From the sequence record PV874203.1: 64,000 bases of DNA; one strand, 5' to 3'. The translations under genes and the position numbers were made by a program. A model generated the notes under the pieces. The model ran no database searches. It saw only the letters and a program-made list of their open reading frames with translations, and had not been told where the DNA came from. The stretch is from a phage. Below, piece after piece: positions 2 through 54,893 of this stretch. Positions within the stretch are counted from its first letter, which is position 1, and the number at the start of each line of letters is the position of its first letter.

Positions 2-3000
2 GCTAACCCATTAGCTGCCGCCGCTATCATTGCAGGTCGTGAGACAGGTCGTGCATATGCAGACCAAACCCCTGAAGAGGGAGAAGATAAGTCTATTCTA
101 GATGCAGCCTTAGTTGGTGGTGCTAACTATGCGGCTCAGAGAATCCTTCCGGGTGCTGTTGGTACAGCTGAGTCCACACTTGGACGTATTGGTCAGAACG
201 TTGCTACTAACGCAGTGGCTGGTGCTAAAGGTGGTGCTCTTGTAGGTGCTGCTGAAGCTCAGAACAAGCATGGAGATGATACAACCTTTGCTAATGTATT
301 AGAGGGTGCTATCGAAGAAGGTGCTATGGGTGCTGCATTCGGTGGTGCAGTTGGTGGTGTTCATGGTTTGATTAGCCGTCCGGATTCTGCTGTCTTCAAG
401 AACACTCCAGAGTATGCGAAGACTGATATTGCTGCTGATGATGAACTGATTCGTAGTGCTAAGAATATTGATGAATTGAAAGAAGCTTACTCTAAAGCTG
501 AAACTGCTAACGCTGCTTCCGCTCTTAATCTTCTAGATGAGAATGGATTCCGTATCACAGATGCTGTTGCTGTAGATTCTCCTGCTGCCCAGCGTATTCT
601 TAATACAGACCAAGCTCGTGCTGAGAAAGCTGCTTCTGTTCAGAAAGAACATTCTAATATTCCTGGCCTCAATCCTTTGGCTTCTCCTGCTAAAGTTCGT
701 GGTAAAGCATTCGCTGATAACGAGCACAACCAGAAGCAAGCTGTTGCTATGAAAGATGCAATGGCTGATTACACAAAGGATAACACTAAAGCTCTTACAG
801 ATGTTCTGGATAATCTTGATCGTGAGTTAGTTTCTCTCCGAGCTTCTGGTGATTTTACTGGTAGTCCGATTGATATTAAGAATCGCACACAAGCTGATCG
901 TGACTTCATTGATGCTTACAAGACTTTCTATAATGAAGCAAACCGATTCAAAGCTCGTGATGGTGAAGACTTTAATAACTTTGTAGAGAAAGCTACTGAA
1001 CTACAGAAGATGGCTGACAATGTTTCTCCAGAGATGAAACAAGCTATTGGTGGGTTGAAGAAACTGAAAGGTATGCCTGAAGGTTTTAATCCTATCCAAG
1101 ACGCCTACACTCTGAACAACACAGCTAAGTTCATGAGCAACCAAGACCGTGGTTGGACTTCCCTTACTGATGATGGCTTCCGTGAGACTTCTTCTCCTAG
1201 TCTGGTTATGAACACCCTTGGTGCTGCTAAGTATGCTCTGAATCGCTTCTCTTCTCAGCGTGCTCGCTCTCAACGTGTTAAGCAACAAGAATCTAACAGT
1301 GAAGCTATCCGCTCTCTGGCTCGTGGTGATTTGGAAGTTGCTCGTGCTAAATCCACTGCTGATGAAGCTCGTGCTAAAATGGAAGAAGAACCAGTTGTTG
1401 ATGACATTAAATTTAAGACGCAAAATGACGTAGAAACCGAACCGGTTCGGGAGCCTTCTTCTAGTACTGTGACGGAAGAAAATCTTCCTTCTTCTGCTCC
1501 TCAAGAAACTCCTCTTACAGCTCGTGATTTAGTTGCGCAAAGACGTGCTATCCGTCAGGCTGAACAGCGTCGCGCTGAAGAAGAGGCAGCAGCTGCTCAA
1601 GAAGCTCCGGTCGAACAAGCTCCACAGGCTGAACCTCTCCCTGCTCGTAATCCTTTAGAGGAACGTCGTGCGATGGAACAGCAACGTGCTCAAGAAGAGG
1701 CCACACAGGCTCCAGAACCCACCGTAGAGGAACCAACAGTTAAAGCTGAGCCATTACCTGCTCGTGCTCCTAAAGCTCCTAAGGAAGCTGTACAGGACGT
1801 TAAACCGGCAAGTGGTGTAGAACGTTTAGCTGCTATGTCTAGTGCTGCTCGTCAGGCTACTAAAGATCGTGCAGAACGTTTTGCTCGTTCTCTGTATTCC
1901 AAGGCTGCTAAGGCTAAAGCTACTGCTGAAAACTTCTTGGCTTACAAGGGTGATCCTAAGGAACTGATGCGTCGCATTCGTCAGGAAGATAATGCTATCA
2001 ACACTGAACGTCATGAAGAAATGGCTCGTAACCAGTTAGCTTCTCAGCAAGGTATTGCTACTGCTAAGAACAACACTGTACGAACTAATTTTGCTGAATG
2101 GGTTAAGGAACGTGGTCTGCCAGAAGATATTGCTACTAAGGCATTACGTGCTGAAGAGAAAGGTTTAGGTGGGAACGTGACTAACTTGGATAGTTTGAAA
2201 CGTCGTGCTGAAAGGTTGTATCAGAAGCAGCGTGAGGCTGAGTTTGATAGACTGTACCAAGAAGCTCTGGAAGAGAACAAAGCTTTCGATAAGAAGGATG
2301 CTCCTAAACTGGTTGACCAGAAGAAAGAGCTTCAGTCTGAGATTGATACTTTGATTGATTCAGAACCTTTACGTCCTGCTCAGAAAGATGCTATGCGCAG
2401 GCTGATGAATGATTATGTAGATGGGAAGTTTAAATCTTCAGAGAAGGCTGGTAGGGAAGAGGCTTTGGAAGTTGGTCAGATGAAGGATATTTGGGATGGG
2501 TTCATTAACACCTATAACAGAGAAGTGAATGCCTTCAACAAAGCTAACAAGAACTCTCAATACGAAGCTGCTGCTAAACACTTGCAGGCTCGTGAAGAAC
2601 GTCTTGCTACTCTGAGAAATAAAGCTCAGGCTCGTTCAGATGCTAAAGCTGCTGTTGAAAATGAACGTAAAACTCTAGAGGCTATTGCAGCTCAGAAGAG
2701 TGAGATTGAGAAGATGATGGAAGGTTTACCTAAACCTGTTCGTGAGGCTCAGGAATCTCGTACATTGAAACAGTTGGCTGCTCACCATGATAAGAACTCT
2801 CCAGTTCCTCCAGAGAAGTTCCGTAGTTACATTGAACGTATCCATAACGCCGAGTCAGATTACCTTGATCGTCAGCGTCGTTTAACTGATGCAGAGGAAG
2901 ATGCTCGTCAGGCTAAGTGGAATAAGATGTATGAGCAAGCGGAAGAGATGGACCGTAAATTTGATATAGACAAAAGAGTTAAACGCAGTGAAGAGCTTAA

Positions 3001-4006
3001 AGCGGCTCAGAAGCGTGAGAATGATCTCATGGCAGTACAACGTCAACGTGACGACATTCATCGTCGCCTGATGCATACTTTGGAAGATAAAGGCATATCT
3101 AAAGAGGATGCTGAAGCATTTGCTGGTTCCTACATGGATAACCGTTATGCACTTCTTGATAAGCCTATGACTCCTACTGAACATCAGAATGCTCGTTCTC
3201 GTATCGAAGCTGATGTTGAGAAGTTTGCTAAGAAGTACGAATCAATGACTCCTATCGAGAAAGAGATTGTTAAGGTTACTGGAGATACTGAAGGTAAGCT
3301 TGATAACTTGGATGCGGATACTAGGAAGGCTATTGAGGAGGCTCAGAAGGTTGACTCTGATATTAAGAAATTGCAAGAGGAAGAGTTGGAGATGGAGAAG
3401 ATTCGTTCTGCTCTGCCTGATGATGAAAAATCTCAAGCAAATTCTGATATCTTGGAAAGTATCAAACAGCAGGAAGAAGTCTTTGCTGATAAAGTAGAGA
3501 AAGCTTTCTTGAGTGGGAAGAGCTTGGATGAGTTAGCTAGTGTGGCTGAAGTTTTAGACAGGGTTCATGGTGCAGATAAGGCTGGTAACAACCGTCGCTT
3601 TGTACGTGCATTGCAGACTGCTGCTGAAAACAAGAAGAAGTATGGTGATAATCCAGTAGCTTGGTTTAGTGCTGATGATTACTCTGCCATTGCTAAACTT
3701 GGCGCTTCTTCCGCAGGTGGTAACAAATCTAGAGCACTGGAGAAGATCTTTGGTTCTACAGCTGAACAGGCTAAGAGTAAGTTGCTTGGTAGGGATGATG
3801 TAGCGAAGATGAGACGTGTGATTGAAGAGAACCCTGATATTAAGATTCCTTCTTACAAGACAACGAATCGTACTGAGTACTTGCAGTTCTTGGAGAAGTT
3901 TAATGACGAAGGGAAGCCGAAGATTAAACGTGGCTCATTGTCAGAGAAGCTTGAACGCAGTAAGCGTCAATCGAGACTCCGTGTAAGAGTTCGACCTAAG
4001 GAGTGA
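2..4006 (+). CDS. Large virion-associated protein, 5'-partial (frame open from window start); Gly/Ala-rich N-terminal region then long charged helical region; putative internal virion/ejection protein or tape-measure-like protein
   Basis: Frame open from position 2 with no stop before 4006; first start codon in track at 215. N-terminus is GA-rich (GAKGGALVGAAEA, GAMGAAFGGAVGG), remainder is K/E/R/A-rich. Function inferred only from size, composition and position at the end of the late block. Confidence 0.6.
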   Translation, partial: ANPLAAAAIIAGRETGRAYADQTPEEGEDKSILDAALVGGANYAAQRILPGAVGTAESTLGRIGQNVATNAVAGAKGGALVGAAEAQNKHGDDTTFANVLEGAIEEGAMGAAFGGAVGGVHGLISRPDSAVFKNTPEYAKTDIAADDELIRSAKNIDELKEAYSKAETANAASALNLLDENGFRITDAVAVDSPAAQRILNTDQARAEKAASVQKEHSNIPGLNPLASPAKVRGKAFADNEHNQKQAVAMKDAMADYTKDNTKALTDVLDNLDRELVSLRASGDFTGSPIDIKNRTQADRDFIDAYKTFYNEANRFKARDGEDFNNFVEKATELQKMADNVSPEMKQAIGGLKKLKGMPEGFNPIQDAYTLNNTAKFMSNQDRGWTSLTDDGFRETSSPSLVMNTLGAAKYALNRFSSQRARSQRVKQQESNSEAIRSLARGDLEVARAKSTADEARAKMEEEPVVDDIKFKTQNDVETEPVREPSSSTVTEENLPSSAPQETPLTARDLVAQRRAIRQAEQRRAEEEAAAAQEAPVEQAPQAEPLPARNPLEERRAMEQQRAQEEATQAPEPTVEEPTVKAEPLPARAPKAPKEAVQDVKPASGVERLAAMSSAARQATKDRAERFARSLYSKAAKAKATAENFLAYKGDPKELMRRIRQEDNAINTERHEEMARNQLASQQGIATAKNNTVRTNFAEWVKERGLPEDIATKALRAEEKGLGGNVTNLDSLKRRAERLYQKQREAEFDRLYQEALEENKAFDKKDAPKLVDQKKELQSEIDTLIDSEPLRPAQKDAMRRLMNDYVDGKFKSSEKAGREEALEVGQMKDIWDGFINTYNREVNAFNKANKNSQYEAAAKHLQAREERLATLRNKAQARSDAKAAVENERKTLEAIAAQKSEIEKMMEGLPKPVREAQESRTLKQLAAHHDKNSPVPPEKFRSYIERIHNAESDYLDRQRRLTDAEEDARQAKWNKMYEQAEEMDRKFDIDKRVKRSEELKAAQKRENDLMAVQRQRDDIHRRLMHTLEDKGISKEDAEAFAGSYMDNRYALLDKPMTPTEHQNARSRIEADVEKFAKKYESMTPIEKEIVKVTGDTEGKLDNLDADTRKAIEEAQKVDSDIKKLQEEELEMEKIRSALPDDEKSQANSDILESIKQQEEVFADKVEKAFLSGKSLDELASVAEVLDRVHGADKAGNNRRFVRALQTAAENKKKYGDNPVAWFSADDYSAIAKLGASSAGGNKSRALEKIFGSTAEQAKSKLLGRDDVAKMRRVIEENPDIKIPSYKTTNRTEYLQFLEKFNDEGKPKIKRGSLSEKLERSKRQSRLRVRVRPKE

Positions 4007-4050: not shown

Positions 4051-4308
4051 CTAGATTAAATCGTAATACTGAATAATGTCAGAGAGTTTGAACTCTCGAA
4101 TCTCATCTTTCTCTACATCAATTGCTGTCATAATCCAACAAGGTTTGCCACCGTTATGAAAACGGGAGCTAGCAACGGAGGTTCGGAGTGGAATAACGGA
4201 CCGGTCAGCAACCTCGCCTCTCCAATTGCGATAGCGAAAGCGAAGCACTTGTTGCGTAGATTTTTGATCATCACTCATTTCCTTTTTTGAATTGTTTTCT
4301 TGCATCAT
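4051..4308 (-). CDS. Hypothetical protein
   Basis: 85-aa ORF in the minus-strand block, tightly packed against neighbours. Confidence 0.45.
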   Translation of the reverse strand: MMQENNSKKEMSDDQKSTQQVLRFRYRNWRGEVADRSVIPLRTSVASSRFHNGGKPCWIMTAIDVEKDEIREFKLSDIIQYYDLI

Positions 4309-4817
4309 TGGTATTCCCTAGCCATCAGATCTTCCTTAGCTTTAAGGTAGGCGTTATGTGCTTCTATTGGTGTGTTGAAACTACCTATATGTTTCCTTTT
4401 ACCTCTGAAGGTAATAGCGGCTACATAAGGATTACTCTTACTGGTCTTGTTGATAGTAACACCTTTCAATCCTGTTGAGAGGTTATCAACTCTAGGATTA
4501 CTCTTATTTAAATTCTGAAGAGATCCTTCTGCTATTCTAAGATTTTGAATAGTGTTGTTTGTCTTATTCTCATCGATATGATCCAGGCTATCTGGATATG
4601 TTCCATAAATGAGGAACCACGCCAGCCTATGAGCGAGCCAAGGCTTCCCATCAAATTGTATCCTCACATATCCATCATTACCTAGTGTCCCAGCCAAAGA
4701 ACCTTTTGAGGCTTTTCCTCCTCTTCTCACTTTCCAAAAGAAGTGACCTGTGTCTGCATTATAGTCTAACACTTCATGGAGATTGGCTAGTCTTTTTAAA
4801 CTGTTTTCGATCTTCAT
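4305..4817 (-). CDS. HNH homing endonuclease with AP2-like DNA-binding region
   Basis: Track ORF 4305..4928 trimmed to an internal ATG (MKIENS...) preceded by AAGGAA. Contains HRLAWFLIYG and DHID-N motifs typical of HNH_3 phage endonucleases. Confidence 0.7.
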   Translation of the reverse strand: MKIENSLKRLANLHEVLDYNADTGHFFWKVRRGGKASKGSLAGTLGNDGYVRIQFDGKPWLAHRLAWFLIYGTYPDSLDHIDENKTNNTIQNLRIAEGSLQNLNKSNPRVDNLSTGLKGVTINKTSKSNPYVAAITFRGKRKHIGSFNTPIEAHNAYLKAKEDLMAREYQ

Positions 4818-5181
4818 TTTCCTTCTTTGTTTTAATCTTATGACAAGGGTCTTTACACAGAACCTGAAAACCTTCTTTCTCACACAGAGCACGAGAGATG
4901 ATTTCATCCCAAGTTGCTTCATGGTCAAGAGGAACTATAGGTTCTATGTGGTCAATAGCCATATCCTTTACAGGGTGGTCAGAACCACACATGGCACACT
5001 TAAAGTGCATTGCCAGTCTGCCTGTCTTTGGATTAATCTTCTGCTCTGTCTTGGCGTCTGCTAGTGCATCGAACATGGGCTTCCACTTTCTAGTCAGAGA
5101 ACGAATCCCTGACTTGATAAAAGAGTTGTAACGAGCTTCAGTCCACATTCCAGAGCATCTAGTCTTCTCAGCCTTCGCCAT
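4774..5181 (-). CDS. HNH endonuclease family protein
   Basis: Motif CAMCG...DHIEPI...LCK-PCH matches the Cys/His HNH nuclease core. Confidence 0.6.
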   Translation of the reverse strand: MAKAEKTRCSGMWTEARYNSFIKSGIRSLTRKWKPMFDALADAKTEQKINPKTGRLAMHFKCAMCGSDHPVKDMAIDHIEPIVPLDHEATWDEIISRALCEKEGFQVLCKDPCHKIKTKKENEDRKQFKKTSQSP

Positions 5182-5382: not shown

Positions 5383-5892
5383 TTATTTGTGACGATGAAA
5401 GCCTAAGTGTAGGTCTTCTCTCTTTATTCTTAGGGCTTCTTCAGCCTCTTCTTTAGTTGCATAATACCCTAGATGGATAGATTTCCCAGACACTCCAATA
5501 ATAGCTCTCCACTTATTAGCTCTTTTATGGAAAGAGACTCCCTTGATTCCGGAAGTACAGTTTATAGAGATCTTTCTGTTCCACTGATTCTGACTTAAAG
5601 TGGCTTCTCTTAGATTACACCACTTGTTATTAGAAGGGTCCCCATCTATGTGATCTACACAATCGGGAATGTAACCTTCCATATAAAGGAATGCAAGTCT
5701 ATGAGATTGGTACAATATTCGATTTACCTTGATGCAGTGGTATTTATGTTTTCCATAAAAACATCCAGCCACATCTCCAACATTCTTCCTACCTTTCTTA
5801 ACTGTCCAAGTAAACTGACCAGTATTCGGGTCATACTTGAGAAGTCTTTTTAACTCTTCTCTATCCAAGATTACCATTCCTTGTTTAACCAT
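5383..5892 (-). CDS. HNH homing endonuclease (HNH_3 plus AP2-like domain)
   Basis: HRLAFLYMEGYIPDCVDHIDGDPSNNKWCNLR motif, then GVSF/KW-A AP2-like segment. Confidence 0.8.
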   Translation of the reverse strand: MVKQGMVILDREELKRLLKYDPNTGQFTWTVKKGRKNVGDVAGCFYGKHKYHCIKVNRILYQSHRLAFLYMEGYIPDCVDHIDGDPSNNKWCNLREATLSQNQWNRKISINCTSGIKGVSFHKRANKWRAIIGVSGKSIHLGYYATKEEAEEALRIKREDLHLGFHRHK

Positions 5893-6675: not shown

Positions 6676-8212
<1,537 letters not shown>

Positions 8213-9687: not shown

Positions 9688-9852
9688 TTACCATTCAAGT
9701 AAACCTTTAAAATTAGATTTTTCTACTATTCTCTGATAATGAAGATTAGAATCAGCTTGTTTCTTTAACATCTCATTATACCTATCTCTGATAGAGTCTT
9801 TATAAACTACAGGTTCTTTAAATAATGAGATCTTGTTCTTTTCTTCTTTCAT
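9688..9852 (-). CDS. Hypothetical small protein
   Basis: Track ORF 9688..9936 trimmed to an internal Met to avoid overlap with the phosphoesterase gene. Confidence 0.3.
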   Translation of the reverse strand: MKEEKNKISLFKEPVVYKDSIRDRYNEMLKKQADSNLHYQRIVEKSNFKGLLEW

Positions 9853-10321
9853 CGAAAACCTTCCTAATCTCTTGCAGAGAAACAGCTTTATAATTAATTT
9901 GCTCCATTGATGTACAGAAATATCTCCAATCATCAATTACATGGTTATGAGTATGAGCATAAATATTAAACTTCCCTCTCATCTCATCAGAGTGAATAGG
10001 AATATGAGTTACCCAAAACTCTTTATATTTAAAGTCACCAGAGATTCTACGGAAGACTTTCATCATATCAGGGAGAAGTTCTAATCTGTCATGATTTCCT
10101 AAGACCAGATGCTTCTCTCCTCTAACTTCAGCGATGATATCAAGGGCATACTTTTCAAACACCCAATCACCTGTAAAGAAAACTTTATCACGTTTGGTTA
10201 CGTGGTCAAAAGCAGCCAGAATTGCTTTGTCATGCTCTTCAATGTTTTTAAATTGCTTACGAAAACTACAGATGTTGCGATGGCCTAAGTGACCATCTCC
10301 TGCAAAATAAACTTCAGCCAT
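9818..10321 (-). CDS. Calcineurin-like metallophosphoesterase (Ser/Thr phosphatase-like)
   Basis: Motifs GDGHLGH, GDWVFE, LGNHD and HTH-H match the metallophosphatase signature. Confidence 0.7.
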   Translation of the reverse strand: MAEVYFAGDGHLGHRNICSFRKQFKNIEEHDKAILAAFDHVTKRDKVFFTGDWVFEKYALDIIAEVRGEKHLVLGNHDRLELLPDMMKVFRRISGDFKYKEFWVTHIPIHSDEMRGKFNIYAHTHNHVIDDWRYFCTSMEQINYKAVSLQEIRKVFDERRKEQDLII

Positions 10322-10330
10322 AAAGACCTC

Positions 10331-10546
10331 TTAAATCAAGCATCCATCACAGGTTAAGTCACCTAATAGGGACAGGGAGAGTAATCTGGATTGTTCATCG
10401 CTGTACAGTTGATCAATCTCTTCTTTGAGTTTTGCCAATTCCATAAAATTAATAAGCTGTCCATGTTCTAGACAGTCTGTTTTCAATATGAATAAAACAT
10501 CAGCGTCTTTTGAATCTTCACTTGAGTATTTATCAATGTATTCCAT
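10331..10546 (-). CDS. Hypothetical protein
   Basis: 71-aa acidic ORF. Confidence 0.4.
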   Translation of the reverse strand: MEYIDKYSSEDSKDADVLFILKTDCLEHGQLINFMELAKLKEEIDQLYSDEQSRLLSLSLLGDLTCDGCLI

Positions 10547-10548
10547 TT

Positions 10549-10770
10549 TTATGCCACATCTCCTTGTTTATTGTTAATAACATCCAGTGCTGTATATGCT
10601 TTACCTGTTCCTAAGTATTCTAGAACTGGAGGACTTTTCTTCTCCTCAGCGACTACATAAGGTGTGATCTTTCCTTTCAGTACAGCCTGAGATGCTTTAG
10701 CGCTGTCTTCAGATGTGTGAACAGTAGTAAACCCTTTCTTTCCAATTCTATAAGTGTGAATCCAAATCAT
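10549..10770 (-). CDS. Hypothetical protein
   Basis: 73-aa ORF. Confidence 0.4.
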   Translation of the reverse strand: MIWIHTYRIGKKGFTTVHTSEDSAKASQAVLKGKITPYVVAEEKKSPPVLEYLGTGKAYTALDVINNKQGDVA

Positions 10771-10782
10771 TTAATTTCCTTA

Positions 10783-11193
10783 TTAACGTATAACCAGAGG
10801 CTCTTCAGAGTACACAGGAGCGGCTATTTCTACAGGAGGTGCTGCCCTAAGGTCATTAAGTCTTACACCCTTCAGCATACCATCTAGGTGGTCCTTTTTG
10901 GGGATTCCAACAGGGAAATCGTCAATCCAGATATCTACAAAGAAACCTAACTGTCGACAAACCTCATCCTTCTGCACACCATTACAAAAGATGATAGGAA
11001 TTTGCAAACACTCTGCATCAATCTTAATGTCGTGATTATCATATCCATTAGGCTCTGCAAAGCGATAAGTTACAAAACGTACATCATAACCTTTAGCTTG
11101 CATTAATGTCACCACAGACCGCCACAGCTCCTTATCTGAGGTGTAAGTATCATCATAATCTAAACCGATATTCATGTCAAGTCCTTTAGACAA
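10783..11193 (-). CDS. Hypothetical protein, possible HAD-like phosphatase/nucleotidase
   Basis: N-terminal IGLDYDDT resembles HAD motif I (DxDxT); other motifs not confirmed. Confidence 0.4.
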   Translation of the reverse strand: MSKGLDMNIGLDYDDTYTSDKELWRSVVTLMQAKGYDVRFVTYRFAEPNGYDNHDIKIDAECLQIPIIFCNGVQKDEVCRQLGFFVDIWIDDFPVGIPKKDHLDGMLKGVRLNDLRAAPPVEIAAPVYSEEPLVIR

Positions 11194-11602: not shown

Positions 11603-11758
11603 AGTTCAGCAAGTTCTAAATAAAACTCAGCTTCATCAGGACGTCCTTGTTCATTACAGATGGCGCTCTGGCGATAACACCAATCCGATGGCATCTCTTC
11701 CACTTCAATCTCCTTGTTAAGAACCAATCAATAAGAATAGTTCATTCGTCTTATTTAT

Positions 11759-11953
11759 TCACTCTACCAATGCAGGTACTTCTATCCTTTTAACTGTGAA
11801 TGTTTTGTTTGGAAACTTTCGAACTAACTCTGCTGCTTTGGTTATTGCTAAGTTCTCTGTCTCAAAGATACACAGTTGACCATTTAATGCTACAAGAGTA
11901 GAGCCACCGCTGAAGACGGCCCAAGATTCATAATAACCACGAACACTCATCAC
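11759..11953 (-). CDS. Hypothetical protein
   Basis: 64-aa ORF. Confidence 0.4.
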   Translation of the reverse strand: MMSVRGYYESWAVFSGGSTLVALNGQLCIFETENLAITKAAELVRKFPNKTFTVKRIEVPALVE

Positions 11954-12315
11954 TCAACCTCAATATTATATAAAGATTTTAATGTATCTTTAACCCAAGA
12001 GATTCGTTTTTGGTTCTTATGATGTGCTCTGTTGTCCCTATCTCTGAAGTATTGATCACATCCAAAAGGATAAGTCTTGTCCAAGAATTTATCCTGAGTG
12101 AACATGTTTTTCATATCATCTATATCTAGATGTTTTGTGAAATAATAATACCTCTTATAACAACGGAAGTTGAAACATAATCCATGATCTTCGTTAAACC
12201 AAGGAGGGCACTCCTCTGTTTGAGTTATATGGTAGTATTGGAGGAGGAAGTCCTCCATCCCCCTCTCCTTGAATAAACACCTAAGTGTTCTGTAAACTAT
12301 ATTAGTTTCTTTCAT
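11950..12315 (-). CDS. Hypothetical Cys/His-rich protein
   Basis: Track ORF trimmed to its first ATG; several Cys/His residues. Confidence 0.45.
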   Translation of the reverse strand: MKETNIVYRTLRCLFKERGMEDFLLQYYHITQTEECPPWFNEDHGLCFNFRCYKRYYYFTKHLDIDDMKNMFTQDKFLDKTYPFGCDQYFRDRDNRAHHKNQKRISWVKDTLKSLYNIEVE

Positions 12316-12323
12316 CACCTACC

Positions 12324-12476
12324 TCAATGGGTATGCATCCAATTCAATCCAATCTGACAATCAGATGCCAGAGGACATTCCATGTTCAAATACTCACCAG
12401 CCTTCTTAACACAAAGCTCGGTGTGCTCTTTGAGTTTCTGTACATCGTTACGATTAGCTGAGAACTGACCCTCATC
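12324..12476 (-). CDS. DNA polymerase (family A, T7 gp5-like), exon 2: motif C (DE of HDE) and C-terminus
   Basis: Hand translation gives DEGQFSANRNDVQKL...MECPLASDCQIGLNWMHTH*, paralleling the T7 DNA polymerase C-terminus (HDE... PNWAICH) as I recall it. An in-frame stop sits immediately upstream. Confidence 0.7.
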   Translation of the reverse strand, partial: DEGQFSANRNDVQKLKEHTELCVKKAGEYLNMECPLASDCQIGLNWMHTH

Positions 12477-13083
12477 CATTTATGTTATTCCCAAATTACT
12501 TCGGGTATCGGACTATATCATAACAGCATAGCTAATTTGCTGTTGTTGGCGCTTCGAGGGTTTCCCTGTTAACCCCCTACTCCCGCAGGATAGTCTCTAC
12601 ACTTTCCACTTTCGAATCCATCTACAAGCGATTCCAAAGCTCACACCAAACCTTTCTGCAAGAGCAACACCAGTACATTCATTATTAAGCCAGAACTCTT
12701 TAGCAGCATCCTGTCTTTCTCTGTTTCTACCAGTATTTGATTCTATGGCATGTGCACTACCTTCTAAGATCTCTAGATGATCAGTGTTACAACATGCCCT
12801 ATTCTTGCATTTGTGGTTAACTTCGTAGCCGTCAGGAATGTTTCCAAACTTCTCTTCCATGACATACCTATGATACATGACCCATTTGCCATTTATCACT
12901 TTTCGAAAGTATCCATCTTTATTTAATTTGTGTGAGATAGGGATGATACATCCTGTGCTAGTTGTTTCTAGCACTAGATCTTTCTTAGCCATATCACCTC
13001 CTAATAGCTTAGCTCGGTATTGCCCTCAACTTAATGGTCGGGTTTCACCGAGTTCACCAACTTTTACATGCACAATGAAGTTT
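12477..13083 (-). mobile_element. Putative group I intron interrupting the DNA polymerase gene at motif C, carrying an HNH homing endonuclease ORF
   Basis: 607-nt insert between exon 1 ending ...VIDMH (codon CAU, so U precedes the 5' splice site) and exon 2 starting DE...; last insert nucleotide is G. Exon 1 frame runs into the insert for 9 codons then stops. Boundaries are plus or minus a few nt. Confidence 0.6.
12597..12992 (-). CDS. HNH homing endonuclease (insert-encoded)
   Basis: GYEVNHKCKNRACCNTDHLE motif (HNH_3); lies wholly inside the insert in the polymerase gene. Confidence 0.8.
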   Translation of the reverse strand: MAKKDLVLETTSTGCIIPISHKLNKDGYFRKVINGKWVMYHRYVMEEKFGNIPDGYEVNHKCKNRACCNTDHLEILEGSAHAIESNTGRNRERQDAAKEFWLNNECTGVALAERFGVSFGIACRWIRKWKV

Positions 13084-14775
13084 ATGCATATCAATTACCT
13101 TAGCACAACGAACCTTATCTCTCTCAATCCACTTGTTAAGGAACATCATAGCATATTTCATAACAACAGCACCAGCACATTGCAGGAGAGTGTTAAGTGC
13201 TTTATGAACCATAACCTTACCAGTGGCATCTCGTCTCATTGTAATCTTACGACCATCAACACCAATCAAGTACCCTTGAGCAGCTTTCTCTGTCATACGA
13301 TCAATGAGGATTGCAATACATGGGTTCTCTGCCAAGAAACGTGCTCGCATCACTGAACCTTCGTCAGCCCCACCACCTACAATTGAACCGAGCTTAGCAT
13401 CACCAGCACCATAGTTGAATGCGTAGATAAATGTCTTAGCGTTGTCACGAGTAGGAAGACCAGCAAGTTTCTGGTTGTGGGAGTGTATATCACCTTCAAG
13501 GAGAATATCACGATACATAATAGCAGAAGCTAAACCACGTTCTGCCAGAGCTTTCTTAGCTGGATTGTTTTCTTCTATTGCTTCAGCAAGCATATCCCTA
13601 CACTCTTTAATGAGGTAGTGTGCAAGCATACGCAACTCTAACCCAGAACCATCATACCCCAAGAATACTTCTTTACCAGCGGGTATGTAATATTTGTAAG
13701 CACCTACAGGTTTGTCTTTCTTCCCCGGCTTACCTTTCTCATAAATTACGTTAGTACCTTTTCGTATATAACAACCATCAGGAACAACGTTAGTAATAAC
13801 GAAAGGACGAGAGTGATCATCATCTGAGTTATAGTCAGATTCAAACAAACTGCGACACTCATGACCAAACAAACCACGGGAGGGAATATTAACCACGATA
13901 CGATGTTTGAATCGAAAAGTCGGCGTAGCGCAGCTGTTAGCTTCTGCCGAAAGTTTACCATCTTCGCGCTCCTTTGCTATAAGTCCACTAATAAGACCTA
14001 GCCTGTGAGCCGCTACAACGCGTCTCTTAAGCAAACTTCCGACACTCCCTAGCTCACCCCCTAACCCTTCTTCAAGAGTCTCCTCGAGGTTTGTAGGGGC
14101 TGTAGGCCACTTGTTTGAGGTAGCTAGTGCTATCTTAATCTCATCAAAAGTAATAGGTCTACGTCGGTTAGGATTTAAACCTAAACCAAACACATAAGCC
14201 TTCATGTAGTTCTTAGTTTTAAACCGAAAATGCTTCTCTAAGAACTTTCTAATATCAGCGTCAACCATCTCGGCTGTCTGCTTCTGTTTAGCATTACCTC
14301 GCATCCAAGCTGAATACCATGCTTGGTATGTTCCATACTTTCGCATATCTTTCTTGATTTCAAAAGTATTCCAAGGTTTCTTTGATACATTAAACTCTGG
14401 AGGAAGAAAACCCTCATCCATAAGGGCTTCTTTAACTCGGGCATCTTTCGATGGGTCAAAGGCTACGTACTCTACACAGGTGAATGCTCCACCAATGTCT
14501 TCTCTCTTAAGTCCAACCCTATCACAATAGGCTTGAGGCCACTTCTGTAAAGCTCCAGACTTCTTAAATGGCTTCATATAAGTAGAGCCATCTAATCTCA
14601 TCTTAGGTAAGAGAGGAATCAGTTCTTTGTCAATATTAACAATAATCTCTTTAAGGAGGTGAACATACCACCGAGCATTTCTTCGGTTGAAACTCACTCC
14701 GTGCTTCGCTTGCTTAGAGATTATATCAGCGACAGTCATCTCTGTCAAAAATGGGAGAGCGTCCGGGTTGCTCAC
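13084..14775 (-). CDS. DNA polymerase (family A, T7 gp5-like), exon 1: polymerase domain through motif B, no 3'-5' exonuclease domain
   Basis: Motif A GYDGSGLELRMLAHY, motif B RDNAKTFIYAFNYGAG, and ALNTLLQCAGA segment parallel T7 gp5. Track ORF ends at 13054 after reading 9 codons into the insert. Confidence 0.85.
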
Positions 14776-19916: not shown

Positions 19917-20403
19917 TATATTCCCTCCAAGTTTGATTAAGTAGAGCTTTTGACATCACTTGCTGAGAGACACCAAAACGTCTTGCAAGGGCAGAGCCTC
20001 CAAACTCTTTATCTCGAGGGATATAGACTCTCCTACAGTACTCTACATCTTCTAGAGTAAGTTTAGACTGTGGATTGTCTTCTCCAAACCTCTGTACCAT
20101 CAGACCTAATGATGATGCATGTTGAGAGTTTTCTCGGTGGGTACACCATTCAAGATTATCTTTATGATTGTTAAGTTTATTGCCATCCTTATGGTTGACA
20201 CATGGAAGATTATCAGGGTTCGGTATGTACTTACTAGCAACCAGCCTGTGGACATAGAAATTCTTTAATCCTTCAGGAAAGTAAATAGTAACTCTGTAAT
20301 AGGCACCATTAGTGTGGAGGGTTAAAAACCTTCCACTCTTTATAGTAAATACTCTACCATCTTCTGTTACATCAATCTTCCCTTCCAATTCTTTTGGAAT
20401 CAC
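19909..20403 (-). CDS. HNH homing endonuclease
   Basis: YVHRLVASKYI...VNHKDGNKLNNHKDNLEWCTHRENSQH (HNH_3). Confidence 0.8.
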   Translation of the reverse strand: MIPKELEGKIDVTEDGRVFTIKSGRFLTLHTNGAYYRVTIYFPEGLKNFYVHRLVASKYIPNPDNLPCVNHKDGNKLNNHKDNLEWCTHRENSQHASSLGLMVQRFGEDNPQSKLTLEDVEYCRRVYIPRDKEFGGSALARRFGVSQQVMSKALLNQTWREYNA

Positions 20404-20726
20404 TTAGGGTCTTCTCCTTCTAACTCAGTAGAGTTTGCTACATTTCTTTCTAGATTGCTTAGAATTTGCTGGGTAATTACGATGCAGTTCTGTGGGTCTA
20501 CTGACTTAGAACGCCCCATTTCAGGGTCATACACCTTAACACGCTTAGCAGTTGAACCTGTGACCTGAAGAACCTTCAACAGATATCCCTGATTACCGAT
20601 AGACCAAGCAACAACATCACGATTCTTGATAAAGCGACCAAGCATATCACGATGATAAAACTGTTGCATCACCTTGGATTTTGTAATCTCTTCAGTGGGC
20701 GGGGCCACTTTACTCAAATCTAACAT
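20400..20726 (-). CDS. Hypothetical protein
   Basis: 108-aa ORF. Confidence 0.45.
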   Translation of the reverse strand: MLDLSKVAPPTEEITKSKVMQQFYHRDMLGRFIKNRDVVAWSIGNQGYLLKVLQVTGSTAKRVKVYDPEMGRSKSVDPQNCIVITQQILSNLERNVANSTELEGEDPK

Positions 20727-39586: not shown

Positions 39587-39662
39587 TGGTGCACCCTACA
39601 GGACTCGAACCTGTAACCAACGACTTAGAAGGTCGCTGCTCTGTCCATTGAGCTAAGGGTGC
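39587..39662 (-). tRNA. tRNA-Arg (anticodon UCU), 76 nt with encoded CCA
   Basis: Hand-folded cloverleaf: acceptor GCACCCT/AGGGTGC, D-arm GCTC/GAGC, anticodon stem GCGAC/GTCGT with loop CTTCTAA, T-arm ACAGG/CCTGT with loop TTCGAGT, 3' ACCA. Confidence 0.8.
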
Positions 39663-52529: not shown

Positions 52530-52736
52530 ATGTCATTAGATAAACAAATTTATGAAGCTCTAACTGGTAACAATCTTAGTGTAGAGGAAAAGAAAGCACT
52601 ATTGAATATGTTGAAAGAGCGTGACCAATGGAGGAAGTATAATAGGATTTTGTCTTTCAAGGCGTATGACTTCCAAAAGAAATTTTATGCAGCAGGATTG
52701 AAGCATCGCTTTAGGTTCTTGTGTGCGGCTAACCGT
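52530..52736 (+). CDS. Terminase large subunit (T7 gp19-like), exon 1, ending inside the Walker A motif
   Basis: GGAGG RBS, ATG; translation ends ...YDFQKKFYAAGLKHRFRFLCAANR then an in-frame TAA. Confidence 0.65.
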
Positions 52737-53558
52737 TAACTGTTATTCACCAAGATAACCAACACGAATCTGTCGCAGTATACAAAAGAGATTATCACCT
52801 AAGGCTTAGCTATGGTGGAGCGGTTTAAAAAGTGTGCTAATTGCTGGAAGGCTGTTACGAAAGTTATGCTAATCAGCAGCGAAGCTTAATGTGGGAAACC
52901 TATTAAGAACGTTCAACGACCAGAGATTATTCTCGTAGGGTAAAGTTACCCGAAACGCACACCCCAGAGTGGGATGATATGGTCTATTCTTTTCGGAAAC
53001 GTAAAGCAGGAGAAATTAAAAATATGTTTTTATATCACATCCGTCGTCCGGGTATGTCTTTAGAAGAGGGCTACATCGGAATCACGACAAACACTACAAA
53101 ACGTTTTGCTCAGCATCACAGAGACACTCGAAATAACAACCGACATAATAGGAACTGGCATCTCTATAACGCTCTTCGTAAATATGATGATATAGAGTTC
53201 GTTATCATAGAAGAAGGGGAAGATGAAGTAATTCGACAGAGAGAGTTTGAATTACGCTCGAAACCTAATATGGGTTGGAATCAAGCAGTAGGAGGTTCTC
53301 ATAATGGTGGCAACACTTGGAAAGGCAAACAACGACCTGAACACTCAGAGCTGATGAAGAAGATAGGTTTCCAGAAAGGTAATACCACTGGATCACATCA
53401 TCCAATCATGGCTGAAGGTCAAATATTTGAGAATAAACGTTTAGCGTCAGAAGCTCTTGGAATAAACCCTAAGACAATCTATAATAGATGCAAGAGAGGT
53501 GTTGATGGTTATAAATTTCTCCGGGATGACACTGTTACGGGTGCATCTGAATAAAGAG
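52737..53558 (+). mobile_element. Putative group I intron in the terminase large subunit gene, carrying a GIY-YIG homing endonuclease ORF
   Basis: About 822-nt insert splitting the P-loop: exon 1 ...AANR (last nt U) and exon 2 VGKSYSEA... give AANRVGKS (AxxxxGKS); insert ends in G. An alternative junction (52731/53550) is also rule-compatible. P1-P9 structure not verified. Confidence 0.55.
52979..53554 (+). CDS. GIY-YIG homing endonuclease (insert-encoded)
   Basis: N-terminal YHIRRPGMSLEEGYIGITTNTTKRFAQH matches the GIY-YIG core; basic C-terminal DNA-binding region. Confidence 0.75.
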   Translation: MVYSFRKRKAGEIKNMFLYHIRRPGMSLEEGYIGITTNTTKRFAQHHRDTRNNNRHNRNWHLYNALRKYDDIEFVIIEEGEDEVIRQREFELRSKPNMGWNQAVGGSHNGGNTWKGKQRPEHSELMKKIGFQKGNTTGSHHPIMAEGQIFENKRLASEALGINPKTIYNRCKRGVDGYKFLRDDTVTGASE

Positions 53559-54893
53559 GTTGGTAAATCTTACAGCGAGGCATACGAGTTTGCTTGTCAT
53601 GTCACAGGTCGCTACCCAACTTGGTGGACAGGATATAAATTTAAAAGACCTATCTTAGCATGGGCAGTTGGTATTACAGGGGATTCCACAAGGAAAGTAT
53701 TGCAAAAGGAATTGTTTGGTACACCTATCGGAAAGGATACAAATTTATTAGGGACAGGTGTCATTCCTCGTGATGCTATCGTCATTGATACGATAGAACG
53801 AGATGGTAACAAACTTCAAATCGTACAAATCAAACATCAAAATGAGAGAGGAGAATTTGACGGTTTAAGTACATTAGAATTCCGTTCAACCCAACAGGGT
53901 GAACACACATTGATGGGTGCAACAGTTGACTACATTTGGTTAGACGAAGAAGATCCATATGAGTCTATGGCTATATTCGCACAGTGCGTCACACGTACAC
54001 TCACAACTAAAGGTCTAGTTACAATTACAGCTACACCAGAGAACGGTTTAACTGAACTGGTAGATAAATTTATGAAAGGTGAAGGGGATGAGAACACAGG
54101 TTCTCTATATTTCCAGAATGCTTCTTGGTGGGATGCTCATGCAGACCTAGGTGGACACATCACTGACCAAGATATAAAAGATATGACTGAGGGTATTCCA
54201 GCGTGGCAATTAGAGATGCGTTCAAAAGGTATGCCATTGTTAGGAAGTGGTTTGATATATGATGTATCGGATGACACAATTAAATGTGAACCATTCGAAA
54301 TTCCTGATACGTGGAAACGTGTCTGTGCAATTGATATTGGTATTGATCACCCAACTGCTGCTGTTTGGACAGCTTACGATGCAAACACGGATACTATCTA
54401 TGTTTACGACTCATATAAAGAAGGTGGCTTTACTCCAGTGTATCATGCTCCAGCTATTAATGGTCGTGGTCAGTGGATTCCTGTCATCCTACCGCATGAT
54501 GCGGACAATACTGAGAAAGGTAGTGGTTCATCTGTTGCTCAATTCTATAAGAATGCAGGAGTTAACGTACAGAGTGAGACCTTCTACAACAAAATTGGAA
54601 TGGATGGTAAAAAGAACTTCTTTGTAGAACCGGGAATCACAGATATCCGAGAAAGAATGATGAGTGGACGCTTTAAAGTCTTTAACACAGCCGCTAACGC
54701 TAAGCTATTCGAAGAGAAAGCTAGATATCACCGTAAGGTTGGTAAGATTATTAAAGAACATGATGACTTAATGGATGCAATGCGTTATTCAGCGTGCTCT
54801 GTTACACATCGTGGTCGCTCTAAGCATGATGTTAGCTACGGAAGCGCTTCTTTGTATGAGGCAAACGTAAGCAGATGGAATCAGAGCTACTAA
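53559..54893 (+). CDS. Terminase large subunit (T7 gp19-like), exon 2: rest of ATPase domain and nuclease domain
   Basis: Begins VGKSYSEAYEF (completing Walker A), Walker B VDYIWLDEED. Track ORF starts at a GTG at 53499 inside the insert. Confidence 0.7.
   Translation, partial: VGKSYSEAYEFACHVTGRYPTWWTGYKFKRPILAWAVGITGDSTRKVLQKELFGTPIGKDTNLLGTGVIPRDAIVIDTIERDGNKLQIVQIKHQNERGEFDGLSTLEFRSTQQGEHTLMGATVDYIWLDEEDPYESMAIFAQCVTRTLTTKGLVTITATPENGLTELVDKFMKGEGDENTGSLYFQNASWWDAHADLGGHITDQDIKDMTEGIPAWQLEMRSKGMPLLGSGLIYDVSDDTIKCEPFEIPDTWKRVCAIDIGIDHPTAAVWTAYDANTDTIYVYDSYKEGGFTPVYHAPAINGRGQWIPVILPHDADNTEKGSGSSVAQFYKNAGVNVQSETFYNKIGMDGKKNFFVEPGITDIRERMMSGRFKVFNTAANAKLFEEKARYHRKVGKIIKEHDDLMDAMRYSACSVTHRGRSKHDVSYGSASLYEANVSRWNQSY

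Follow-up and report, generated by a model that had tools for sequence, protein, structure and literature searches.

The DNA analysed here, the window, is a 64,000-nucleotide (nt) stretch of phage sequence (record PV874203.1), and the subject of this report is its large terminase gene, terL (52530-54893; this and all other features of the window lie on the plus strand unless stated otherwise), which is split in its Walker A motif by an 822-nt insert carrying a GIY-YIG endonuclease gene. Record matches identify the phage as a phiEco32-like (Kuravirus, Gordonclarkvirinae) Escherichia coli phage. The first open reading frame (ORF), at 52530-52739, encodes 69 amino acids (aa) with the C-terminal end ...RFRFLCAANR, followed by TAA, and VGKSYSEAYEF... 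is read on the same strand from 53559, with a stop codon at 54891-54893. The ORF list opens the second terminase ORF at GTG 53499, from where it reads through to ...VGKSYSEAYEF at 53559; the 20 codons from the GTG, which run across the closing part of the endonuclease ORF in a different frame, are an ORF-calling artefact. No Pfam match was found in the 69-aa piece alone, and the downstream piece matches Terminase_6N and Terminase_6C. Joining exon 1 (52530-52736, 69 codons) to exon 2 (53559-54893, 444 codons plus stop) extends the Terminase_6N match N-terminally, to profile position 4, and yields a 513-aa TerL that differs from phiEco32 gp7 (ABY52808, 513 aa) at three positions, E19D, N248S and A264V. 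The joined protein matches PF03237 (56 bits) and PF17289 (53 bits), which places an ATPase and an RNase H-like nuclease in one polypeptide; the nuclease domain matches the P22 large terminase 4DKW (E 1.6e-31). The joined motif, AANR|VGKS, fits the Walker A pattern A/GxxxxGK[ST] and stands at the start of the Terminase_6N match, and a Walker B-like IWLDEED follows about 130 residues downstream, also in exon 2. The 69-aa ORF, being in the register of the phiEco32 gp7 N-terminus, is the true N-terminus of TerL and not an unrelated gene. The initial annotation had thus read this part of the locus correctly, including the end of the 69-aa ORF, the GTG artefact, the VGKS start and the P-loop formed by joining the two pieces.

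Intron-free relatives fix the insertion site to the base. The region is matched at 80-99% identity by 98 phage records in GenBank, nearly all from Escherichia/Shigella phages of the phiEco32 group, and terL is uninterrupted in every one of them. None of the 98 reaches 80% query coverage; the best 30 cover about two thirds of the query, in two or three pieces, with the insert absent. At the site the relatives read ...AACCGT|GTTGGT..., or, over a longer span, ...TGTGCAGCGAACCGT|GTTGGTAAATCT..., and the window reads ...TGTGCGGCTAACCGT (822 nt) GTTGGTAAATCT... When the whole window was compared with OQ540978 by local BLAST, 52736 came directly against 53559, with no base gained or lost, and the DNA alignment with intron-free relatives excludes the alternative junction 52730/53550, which the initial annotation had left standing beside 52736/53559. 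The insert, 52737-53558, is preceded by U52736, opens with an in-frame TAA (52737-52739), contains the GIY-YIG ORF and ends in G53558, all as first described. Since the insert opens with T and closes with G, and the exon bases on either side are also T and G, the junction is unable to slide. The insertion, in phase 0, separates codon R69 from codon V70. An assembly artefact is excluded, since several independent assemblies carry the insert.

An Rfam search of the insert for a group I intron was positive over the full length of the model. The match to RF00028 (Intron_gpI) covers 52734-53006 with 74.6 bits (gathering threshold 50 bits; E 4.4e-17 for the 64-kb window) and spans model positions 1-253 of 253; the group I intron is delimited as 52737-53558, with omega-G 53558 as its last base. 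An in-frame stop together with a ribozyme excludes an intein and means that the insert must leave at the RNA level. The Rfam alignment shows the paired segments P3, P4, P5, P6, P7, P8 and P9. P3 (GUGUGC 52832-37 / GCACAC 52957-62) encloses P4 (52842-47/52873-78), P5 with a GAAA loop, and P6/P6a (52885-90/52902-07), and compensatory changes are found in P3, P4 and P6a. The guanosine-binding helix P7 (GACCA 52918-22 / UGGUC 52980-84; GACUA/UAGUC in the related locus L020) encloses the 3' strand of P3 (P3') and P8 (52963-65/52971-73). Two extra hairpins lie between P7 and P3', P7.1 (GAGA/UCUC, 52923-26/52931-34) and P7.2 (GGGUAA/UUACCC, 52938-43/52946-51), and both have compensatory variants among related copies. 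In the scheme of Michel and Westhof such hairpins are characteristic of subgroup IA2, to which the T4 introns belong, and by this criterion alone the sequence suggests IA2 membership for the present intron. The P9 hairpin (CUUUUCG-GAAA-CGUAAAG, 52989-95/53000-06) is capped by a GAAA tetraloop and occurs in four sequence variants. The joining segment J7/9 supplies the 5' strand of P9.0 (UAUUC 52985-89), which pairs with GAAUA 53549-53 (UGGUC/GAACA in L020); from there AAGAG leads to the omega-G. A 3'-terminal hairpin, P9.2 (GAUG(A)CAC/GUGCAUC, 53525-53547), falls in the terminal 34 nt of the intron and is known in five fully paired versions, with five of its seven pairs changed on both sides.

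Regarding related copies, assemblies in NCBI, ENA and Logan contain 11 contigs that encode the exact 69-aa exon-1 peptide; those that reach far enough continue with a GIY-YIG ORF and then terminase pieces, and their intron copies are 97-99% identical to the window. No record was found for the exact 191-aa and 176-aa endonuclease proteins, the two lengths given by alternative starts. Endonuclease homologues (n=28) are 51-97% identical, and the contigs of nine of them have the window's layout as far as each extends: an exon-1 ORF ending FLCAANR, the intron, the GIY-YIG ORF, exon 2 opening with V/I-G-K-S/T, and an SU10-type portal gene. The related introns, which sit at this terL site in independent assemblies and accompany endonucleases 52-97% identical to that of the window, are 783-822 nt long, and those scanned with Rfam score 64-75 bits; in all nine examined a U precedes the intron and a G ends it. 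Every helix is kept in seven diverged copies, which come from independent metagenome assemblies and all occupy one terL site. Covariation was measured in an alignment of ten sequences, with the endonuclease ORF removed, against a structure of 76 pairs. The structure is paired in 93.4% of 739 cells, compared with 38-42% after a shift of the 3' partners by 1-3 columns; both sides have changed in 34 of the 76 pairs, and none of 500 shuffles matches any of five covariation measures. Hand checking revealed two to six versions each of P2, P2.1, P3, P4, P6a, P7, P7.1, P7.2, P8, P9, P9.0 and P9.2, all fully complementary except P9 (5-7 of 7 pairs) and P9.0 (4-5 of 5), and an additional lineage, L115, conforms to the same structure model.

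Searches beyond these copies met mostly the core. In IMG/VR, a window-specific 17-mer gave no matches, and a 15-mer from P7 gave 83 loci, where nearly all nhmmer matches were core-only; a pattern scan of JGI metagenomes gave four loci. The P3-P9 core is common to many other IMG/VR contigs. The sole near-full-length nhmmer match among the 83 loci lies in another gene: L036 (IMG/VR contig 3300017818_001639, ~2930-3480) is an unrelated viral contig with a tandem pair of group I introns that lack an ORF and have a related core, and by translation the interrupted gene resembles a capsid-type structural gene. A further locus, L106 (OERV01000146.1, ~1420-1540), has a copy of the intron 5' domain in the exon context ...LMAGNR| instead of ...FLCAANR|, so terminase genes further removed from this one carry the element too; this locus stops before the 3' exon and has a candidate P10 box, UCCAAC.

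The 5' domain contains the elements that would recognise the exons. The putative P1 joins the exon sequence AACCGU (52731-52736) to the guide GCGGUU (52820-52825), directly 5' of UAAAAA-P3, by six of six base pairs with a U52736.G52820 wobble at the 5' splice site, and GCGGUU is unchanged in seven diverged lineages while adjacent bases vary. For P10, the box ACCAAC (52758-52763) is complementary to the start of exon 2, GUUGGU (53559-53564). This helix is 95% paired, with two pairs changed on both sides, and shows two independent double changes, ACCAAU/AUUGGU in L020 and CCUAC/GUAGG in L110. In most lineages the P10 guide lies ~55 nt upstream of the P1 guide, and two hairpins are found between them. 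The first, P2-like (AAUCU 52767-71 / AGAUU 52789-93), has the conserved loop GUCGCAGUAUACAAAAG and the variants GAGUCU/AGAUUC and GCUU/AAGC, with pairing complete in all; the second, P2.1-like (UCACC/GGUGG, 52795-52818), becomes CUCC/GGAG in L019, CACCA/UGGUG in L018 and CGUC/GACG in L115. An optional hairpin between the 5' splice site and the P10 box (GUUAU/AUAAC, 52742-52759; GUGU/ACAC in L015) is absent in L019, L020 and L110. In L018 the ACCAAC box and the adjoining hairpin are missing, and CAAU, which matches the exon AUUG of that locus, stands directly 5' of GCGGUU; the predicted guide of L018, CAAU-GCGGUU, is of the ordinary contiguous type.

We give an even chance to the proposal that the intron uses a split internal guide, with its P10 strand ~55 nt upstream of its P1 strand and two hairpins between the two. 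If so, the family would preserve a case in which the substrate-binding domain of a group I ribozyme was rearranged. The intron could instead be real and have as its true guide the contiguous ACCAAC-ACG (52758-52766), with GCGGUU a mere conserved joining segment. Those nine nucleotides are a perfect complement of the ligated CGU|GUUGGU, they give the textbook order P1-P2-P2.1-P3, and ACG is kept in the window, L015, L019, L020, L110 and L115. However, L106 reads ACA, and L018 has neither the ACCAAC box nor P2 and carries the contiguous CAAU-GCGGUU described above. Moreover, P1 would comprise only 3 base pairs (4 in L019), with a U-A at the splice site where a U.G is nearly universal, whereas the invariant GCGGUU offers 6 base pairs with U.G. 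We therefore consider the contiguous ACCAAC-ACG guide unlikely.

The endonuclease gene (53024-53554, 176 aa) is located between P9 and the 3'-terminal hairpin and is preceded by the Shine-Dalgarno sequence GGAG (53009-12). Its product matches Pfam PF01541 (26.1 bits, cutoff 22.6) and several PHROG homing-endonuclease families, including phrog_314 (E 1e-13) and phrog_5123. The start methionine at ATG 53024 is common to 14 of 15 aligned homologues. The upstream start at ATG 52979, which gives a 191-aa ORF, was rejected, as most homologues open with MFLYH/MYLYH at the 53024 methionine and because the upstream extension also overlaps P7', J7/9 and P9. At the other end, the last codons and the stop (53552-54) overlap P9.2 and P9.0 and so double as ribozyme elements. 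Across 16 homologues GYIG 16-19, R27, H31, E74 and N86 are invariant, and Y4 nearly so; R27, E74 and N86 would be the equivalents of R27, E75 and N90 of I-TevI. The homologue alignment also shows a largely invariant central segment, RPEHSE..K.GFQ.GN, and an invariant C-terminal KTIYNR. Residues 133-158 match a Fis/NtrC-type helix-turn-helix weakly (E 0.24), and a PDB sequence search yielded no related solved structure, I-TevI included. Pairwise ratios of nonsynonymous to synonymous substitution (dN/dS) are 0.04-0.07; the protein is therefore under strong purifying selection. The closest copies depart from the window at 1-2 of 287 ribozyme-core positions, and the endonuclease ORF has a dS of 0.2-0.26 (versus L005 and L007), far above the terL exon divergence of ~1.5%. 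The contrast suggests that the RNA is very strongly constrained or that recombination has given the ORF its own history.

The exons carry a one-sided trace next to the insertion site. The window terL differs from four intron-free relatives at 14-23 of 1542 positions, and exon 1 has three of the changes within its final 22 nt (-22, -10 and -7); in L005, five are within its final 30 nt. All of these junction-proximal changes are synonymous; about 0.3 synonymous changes would be expected within 30 nt upstream of the site, and none is counted over the first 56 nt beyond it. The first change in exon 2 lies 15 nt from the junction relative to vB-EcoP-XT32 and PH444, 57 nt relative to phiEco32 and 138 nt relative to OQ540978. 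The sequence GCGGCUAACCGU is common to intron-bearing alleles of otherwise diverged phages. The T4 enzyme I-TevI cuts upstream of its insertion site and leaves upstream co-conversion, and here, likewise, the flanking exon changes are on the upstream side. The exon-1 cluster is the pattern that co-conversion after an upstream cut would be expected to leave.

It might be that the intron splices but no longer homes, its endonuclease being inactive and carried along as a passenger, or else recruited to another role, for instance as maturase or regulator. The absence of the intron from all 98 sequenced isolates, which makes its spread appear limited, fits that idea. Nevertheless, the low dN/dS and the invariant catalytic-motif residues in homologues as little as 51% and up to 97% identical indicate a protein under selection, the one-sided cluster fits recent homing, and phages whose terL and portal sequences clearly differ contain the element. 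A passenger or co-opted endonuclease is accordingly quite improbable.

The element is very probably a group I intron that is mobile and self-splicing and that interrupts terL in phase 0, after codon 69 and before codon 70, in the Walker A P-loop. terL would be transcribed together with the intron, and ribosomes on the unspliced RNA would halt at the TAA that opens the intron, giving only a 69-aa fragment. The ribozyme would fold around its P3-P9 core, with exon AACCGU paired to GCGGUU as P1, and an exogenous guanosine would attack after U52736. The 3' splice site would be placed by P9.0 (UAUUC/GAAUA), omega-G53558 and P10 (GUUGGU with ACCAAC), and exon ligation, at the predicted junction ...GCTAACCGT|GTTGGTAAA..., would produce the mRNA for a normal 513-aa terminase. 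In a mixed infection, the 176-aa enzyme would cut intron-free terL, probably upstream of the insertion site, and repair would transfer the intron to the recipient, along with a short part of exon 1.

Several points weigh against this reading. Splicing, endonuclease activity and homing are here predictions from sequence, and a collection of 50,697 phage genomes contains no copy of the intron, so that there is no annotated or studied copy. Both strands of P1 are invariant, which makes covariation uninformative for this helix and leaves conservation and fit as its support, and the non-contiguity of the P1 and P10 guides is atypical. The Rfam alignment puts P1 elsewhere, at ~52738-52779; that pairing (ACUGU/GCAGU) was rejected, as it is unconserved in L015, L019 and L020 and the splice site would follow the stop codon. 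In addition, a helix that would close the loop containing the ORF, GGAGAAAUU 53009-17 / AAUUUCUCC 53514-22, is equalled in length in 792 of 2000 shuffles. One possible compensatory pair occurs in it, in L110, and the helix, a tentative possibility, would bury the ribosome-binding site. As for a terminase that is truly split, with the insert unspliced and fragments of 69 and ~444 aa cooperating, or a terL pseudogene, the in-frame stop that opens the insert would suit either, but both are barely credible given that exon 2 at 53559 has no placed start codon or ribosome-binding site (only the upstream GTG inside the endonuclease ORF), that the break falls inside the P-loop, that ribozyme covariation is strong across seven lineages, and that the exons are tightly conserved, three aa changes from phiEco32.

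A second group I intron, absent from the window, was observed in terL of several relatives (Rfam 60-78 bits), at 6411-7144 of L005, ~3909-4171 of L015, 3930-4634 of L017 and 1336-1575 of L021; the corresponding site of the window is 53945/53946. L005 was the copy analysed: there the intron splits the Walker B codons, IWLD|EED, with a U before and a G last, and its 148-aa ORF has an HNH-like motif that scores under the Pfam HNH cutoff (16.7 bits).

A close comparison is the td intron of phage T4, a group IA2 intron in the thymidylate synthase gene that carries the GIY-YIG enzyme I-TevI, with its ORF in the P6 loop. Both are group I introns with P7.1/P7.2 in a highly conserved site of an essential phage gene, and the enzymes share a GIY-YIG N-terminal catalytic domain; a C-terminal DNA-binding helix-turn-helix in the present enzyme is a candidate further resemblance. 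The present intron differs in that its ORF follows P9 instead of lying in the P6 loop, in its host gene, terL, and in its separated P1 and P10 guides. The only nucleotide matches in the phage collection are DNA polymerase introns of Felix O1-like Salmonella/E. coli phages and of Staphylococcus phages, and these are limited to ~60-nt stretches of the core, over P3-P5, at ~80-87% identity; the 5' domain (guides, P2, P2.1), the ORF and the host gene are different here. Within terL itself, group I introns have been described in 5 of 52 Bastillevirinae Bacillus phages, some genes having two or three introns; splicing of the SIOphi TerL intron was shown in vitro and in vivo, and these introns carry homing endonucleases of the HNH/VSR type (PMC11878797). 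The two cases share group I introns with homing endonucleases in terL, although those phages belong to a different family, myoviruses of Gram-positive hosts, and the element described here, in an E. coli podovirus, carries a GIY-YIG enzyme. The phage collection search found no sequence relationship to the Bastillevirinae terL introns. In mycobacteriophages, TerL contains inteins at the P-loop (Walker A) and at Walker B (PMC5050341). These, too, are insertions associated with homing endonucleases in the identical terminase ATPase motifs, but they splice as protein, whereas the present insert would be removed from the RNA. Group I introns and inteins in phage terminase genes are therefore already documented (PMC11878797, PMC5050341), and the element is of a familiar kind. 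A literature search found no paper whose title or abstract deals with an intron in phiEco32/Kuravirus phages.

Genomes with this element receive truncated or split terminase calls, and the correct product would be a normal 513-aa TerL; on related contigs, automatic gene calling gave pieces of 69 aa, 176 aa and 147-462 aa. The finding would add E. coli podophages of the genus Kuravirus to the known range of self-splicing introns that carry GIY-YIG endonucleases, and it shows Walker A of the terminase, and Walker B in relatives, to be targets of introns as they are of mycobacteriophage inteins. Phage therapy with phiEco32-like phages is concerned as well, since co-infection could let a homing element in terL pass from one phage to another. 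Structural novelty is conceivable only in the separation of the P1 and P10 guides, and the current understanding of group I introns is unchanged unless that separation proves both real and new. Should the split guide be true, this family together with the Walker B introns of relatives would provide a natural series for studying the evolution of exon recognition.

Other features of the window were noted. On the minus strand, the DNA polymerase gene (12324-14775) is split into a 573-aa piece (13054-14775) and a 51-aa C-terminal piece (12324-12479), separated by a 131-aa HNH-like ORF (12597-12992, minus strand); OQ540978, with an uninterrupted terL, is annotated with the same polymerase split. 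The polymerase is probably what the initial annotation meant by a second essential gene with a homing-endonuclease insert. That second case is plausible but weaker, with an HNH-like ORF in the split and an Rfam group I match at 12489-12676 that stays below threshold (27.2 bits, E 2e-4). Two minus-strand ORFs, 4305-4922 and 5383-5892, contain Pfam HNH_3 domains and lie in segments absent from OQ540978; one of them also matches AP2 (30.6 bits, cutoff 33.3), and both look like free-standing homing endonucleases. Further gaps relative to OQ540978 are at 6690-7303, 9846-10787, 11752-12328, 19917-20404 and 20802-21671. A tRNA gene is found at 39590-39662 on the minus strand (Rfam 71.9 bits), and OQ540978 has a tRNA-Arg at the corresponding place.

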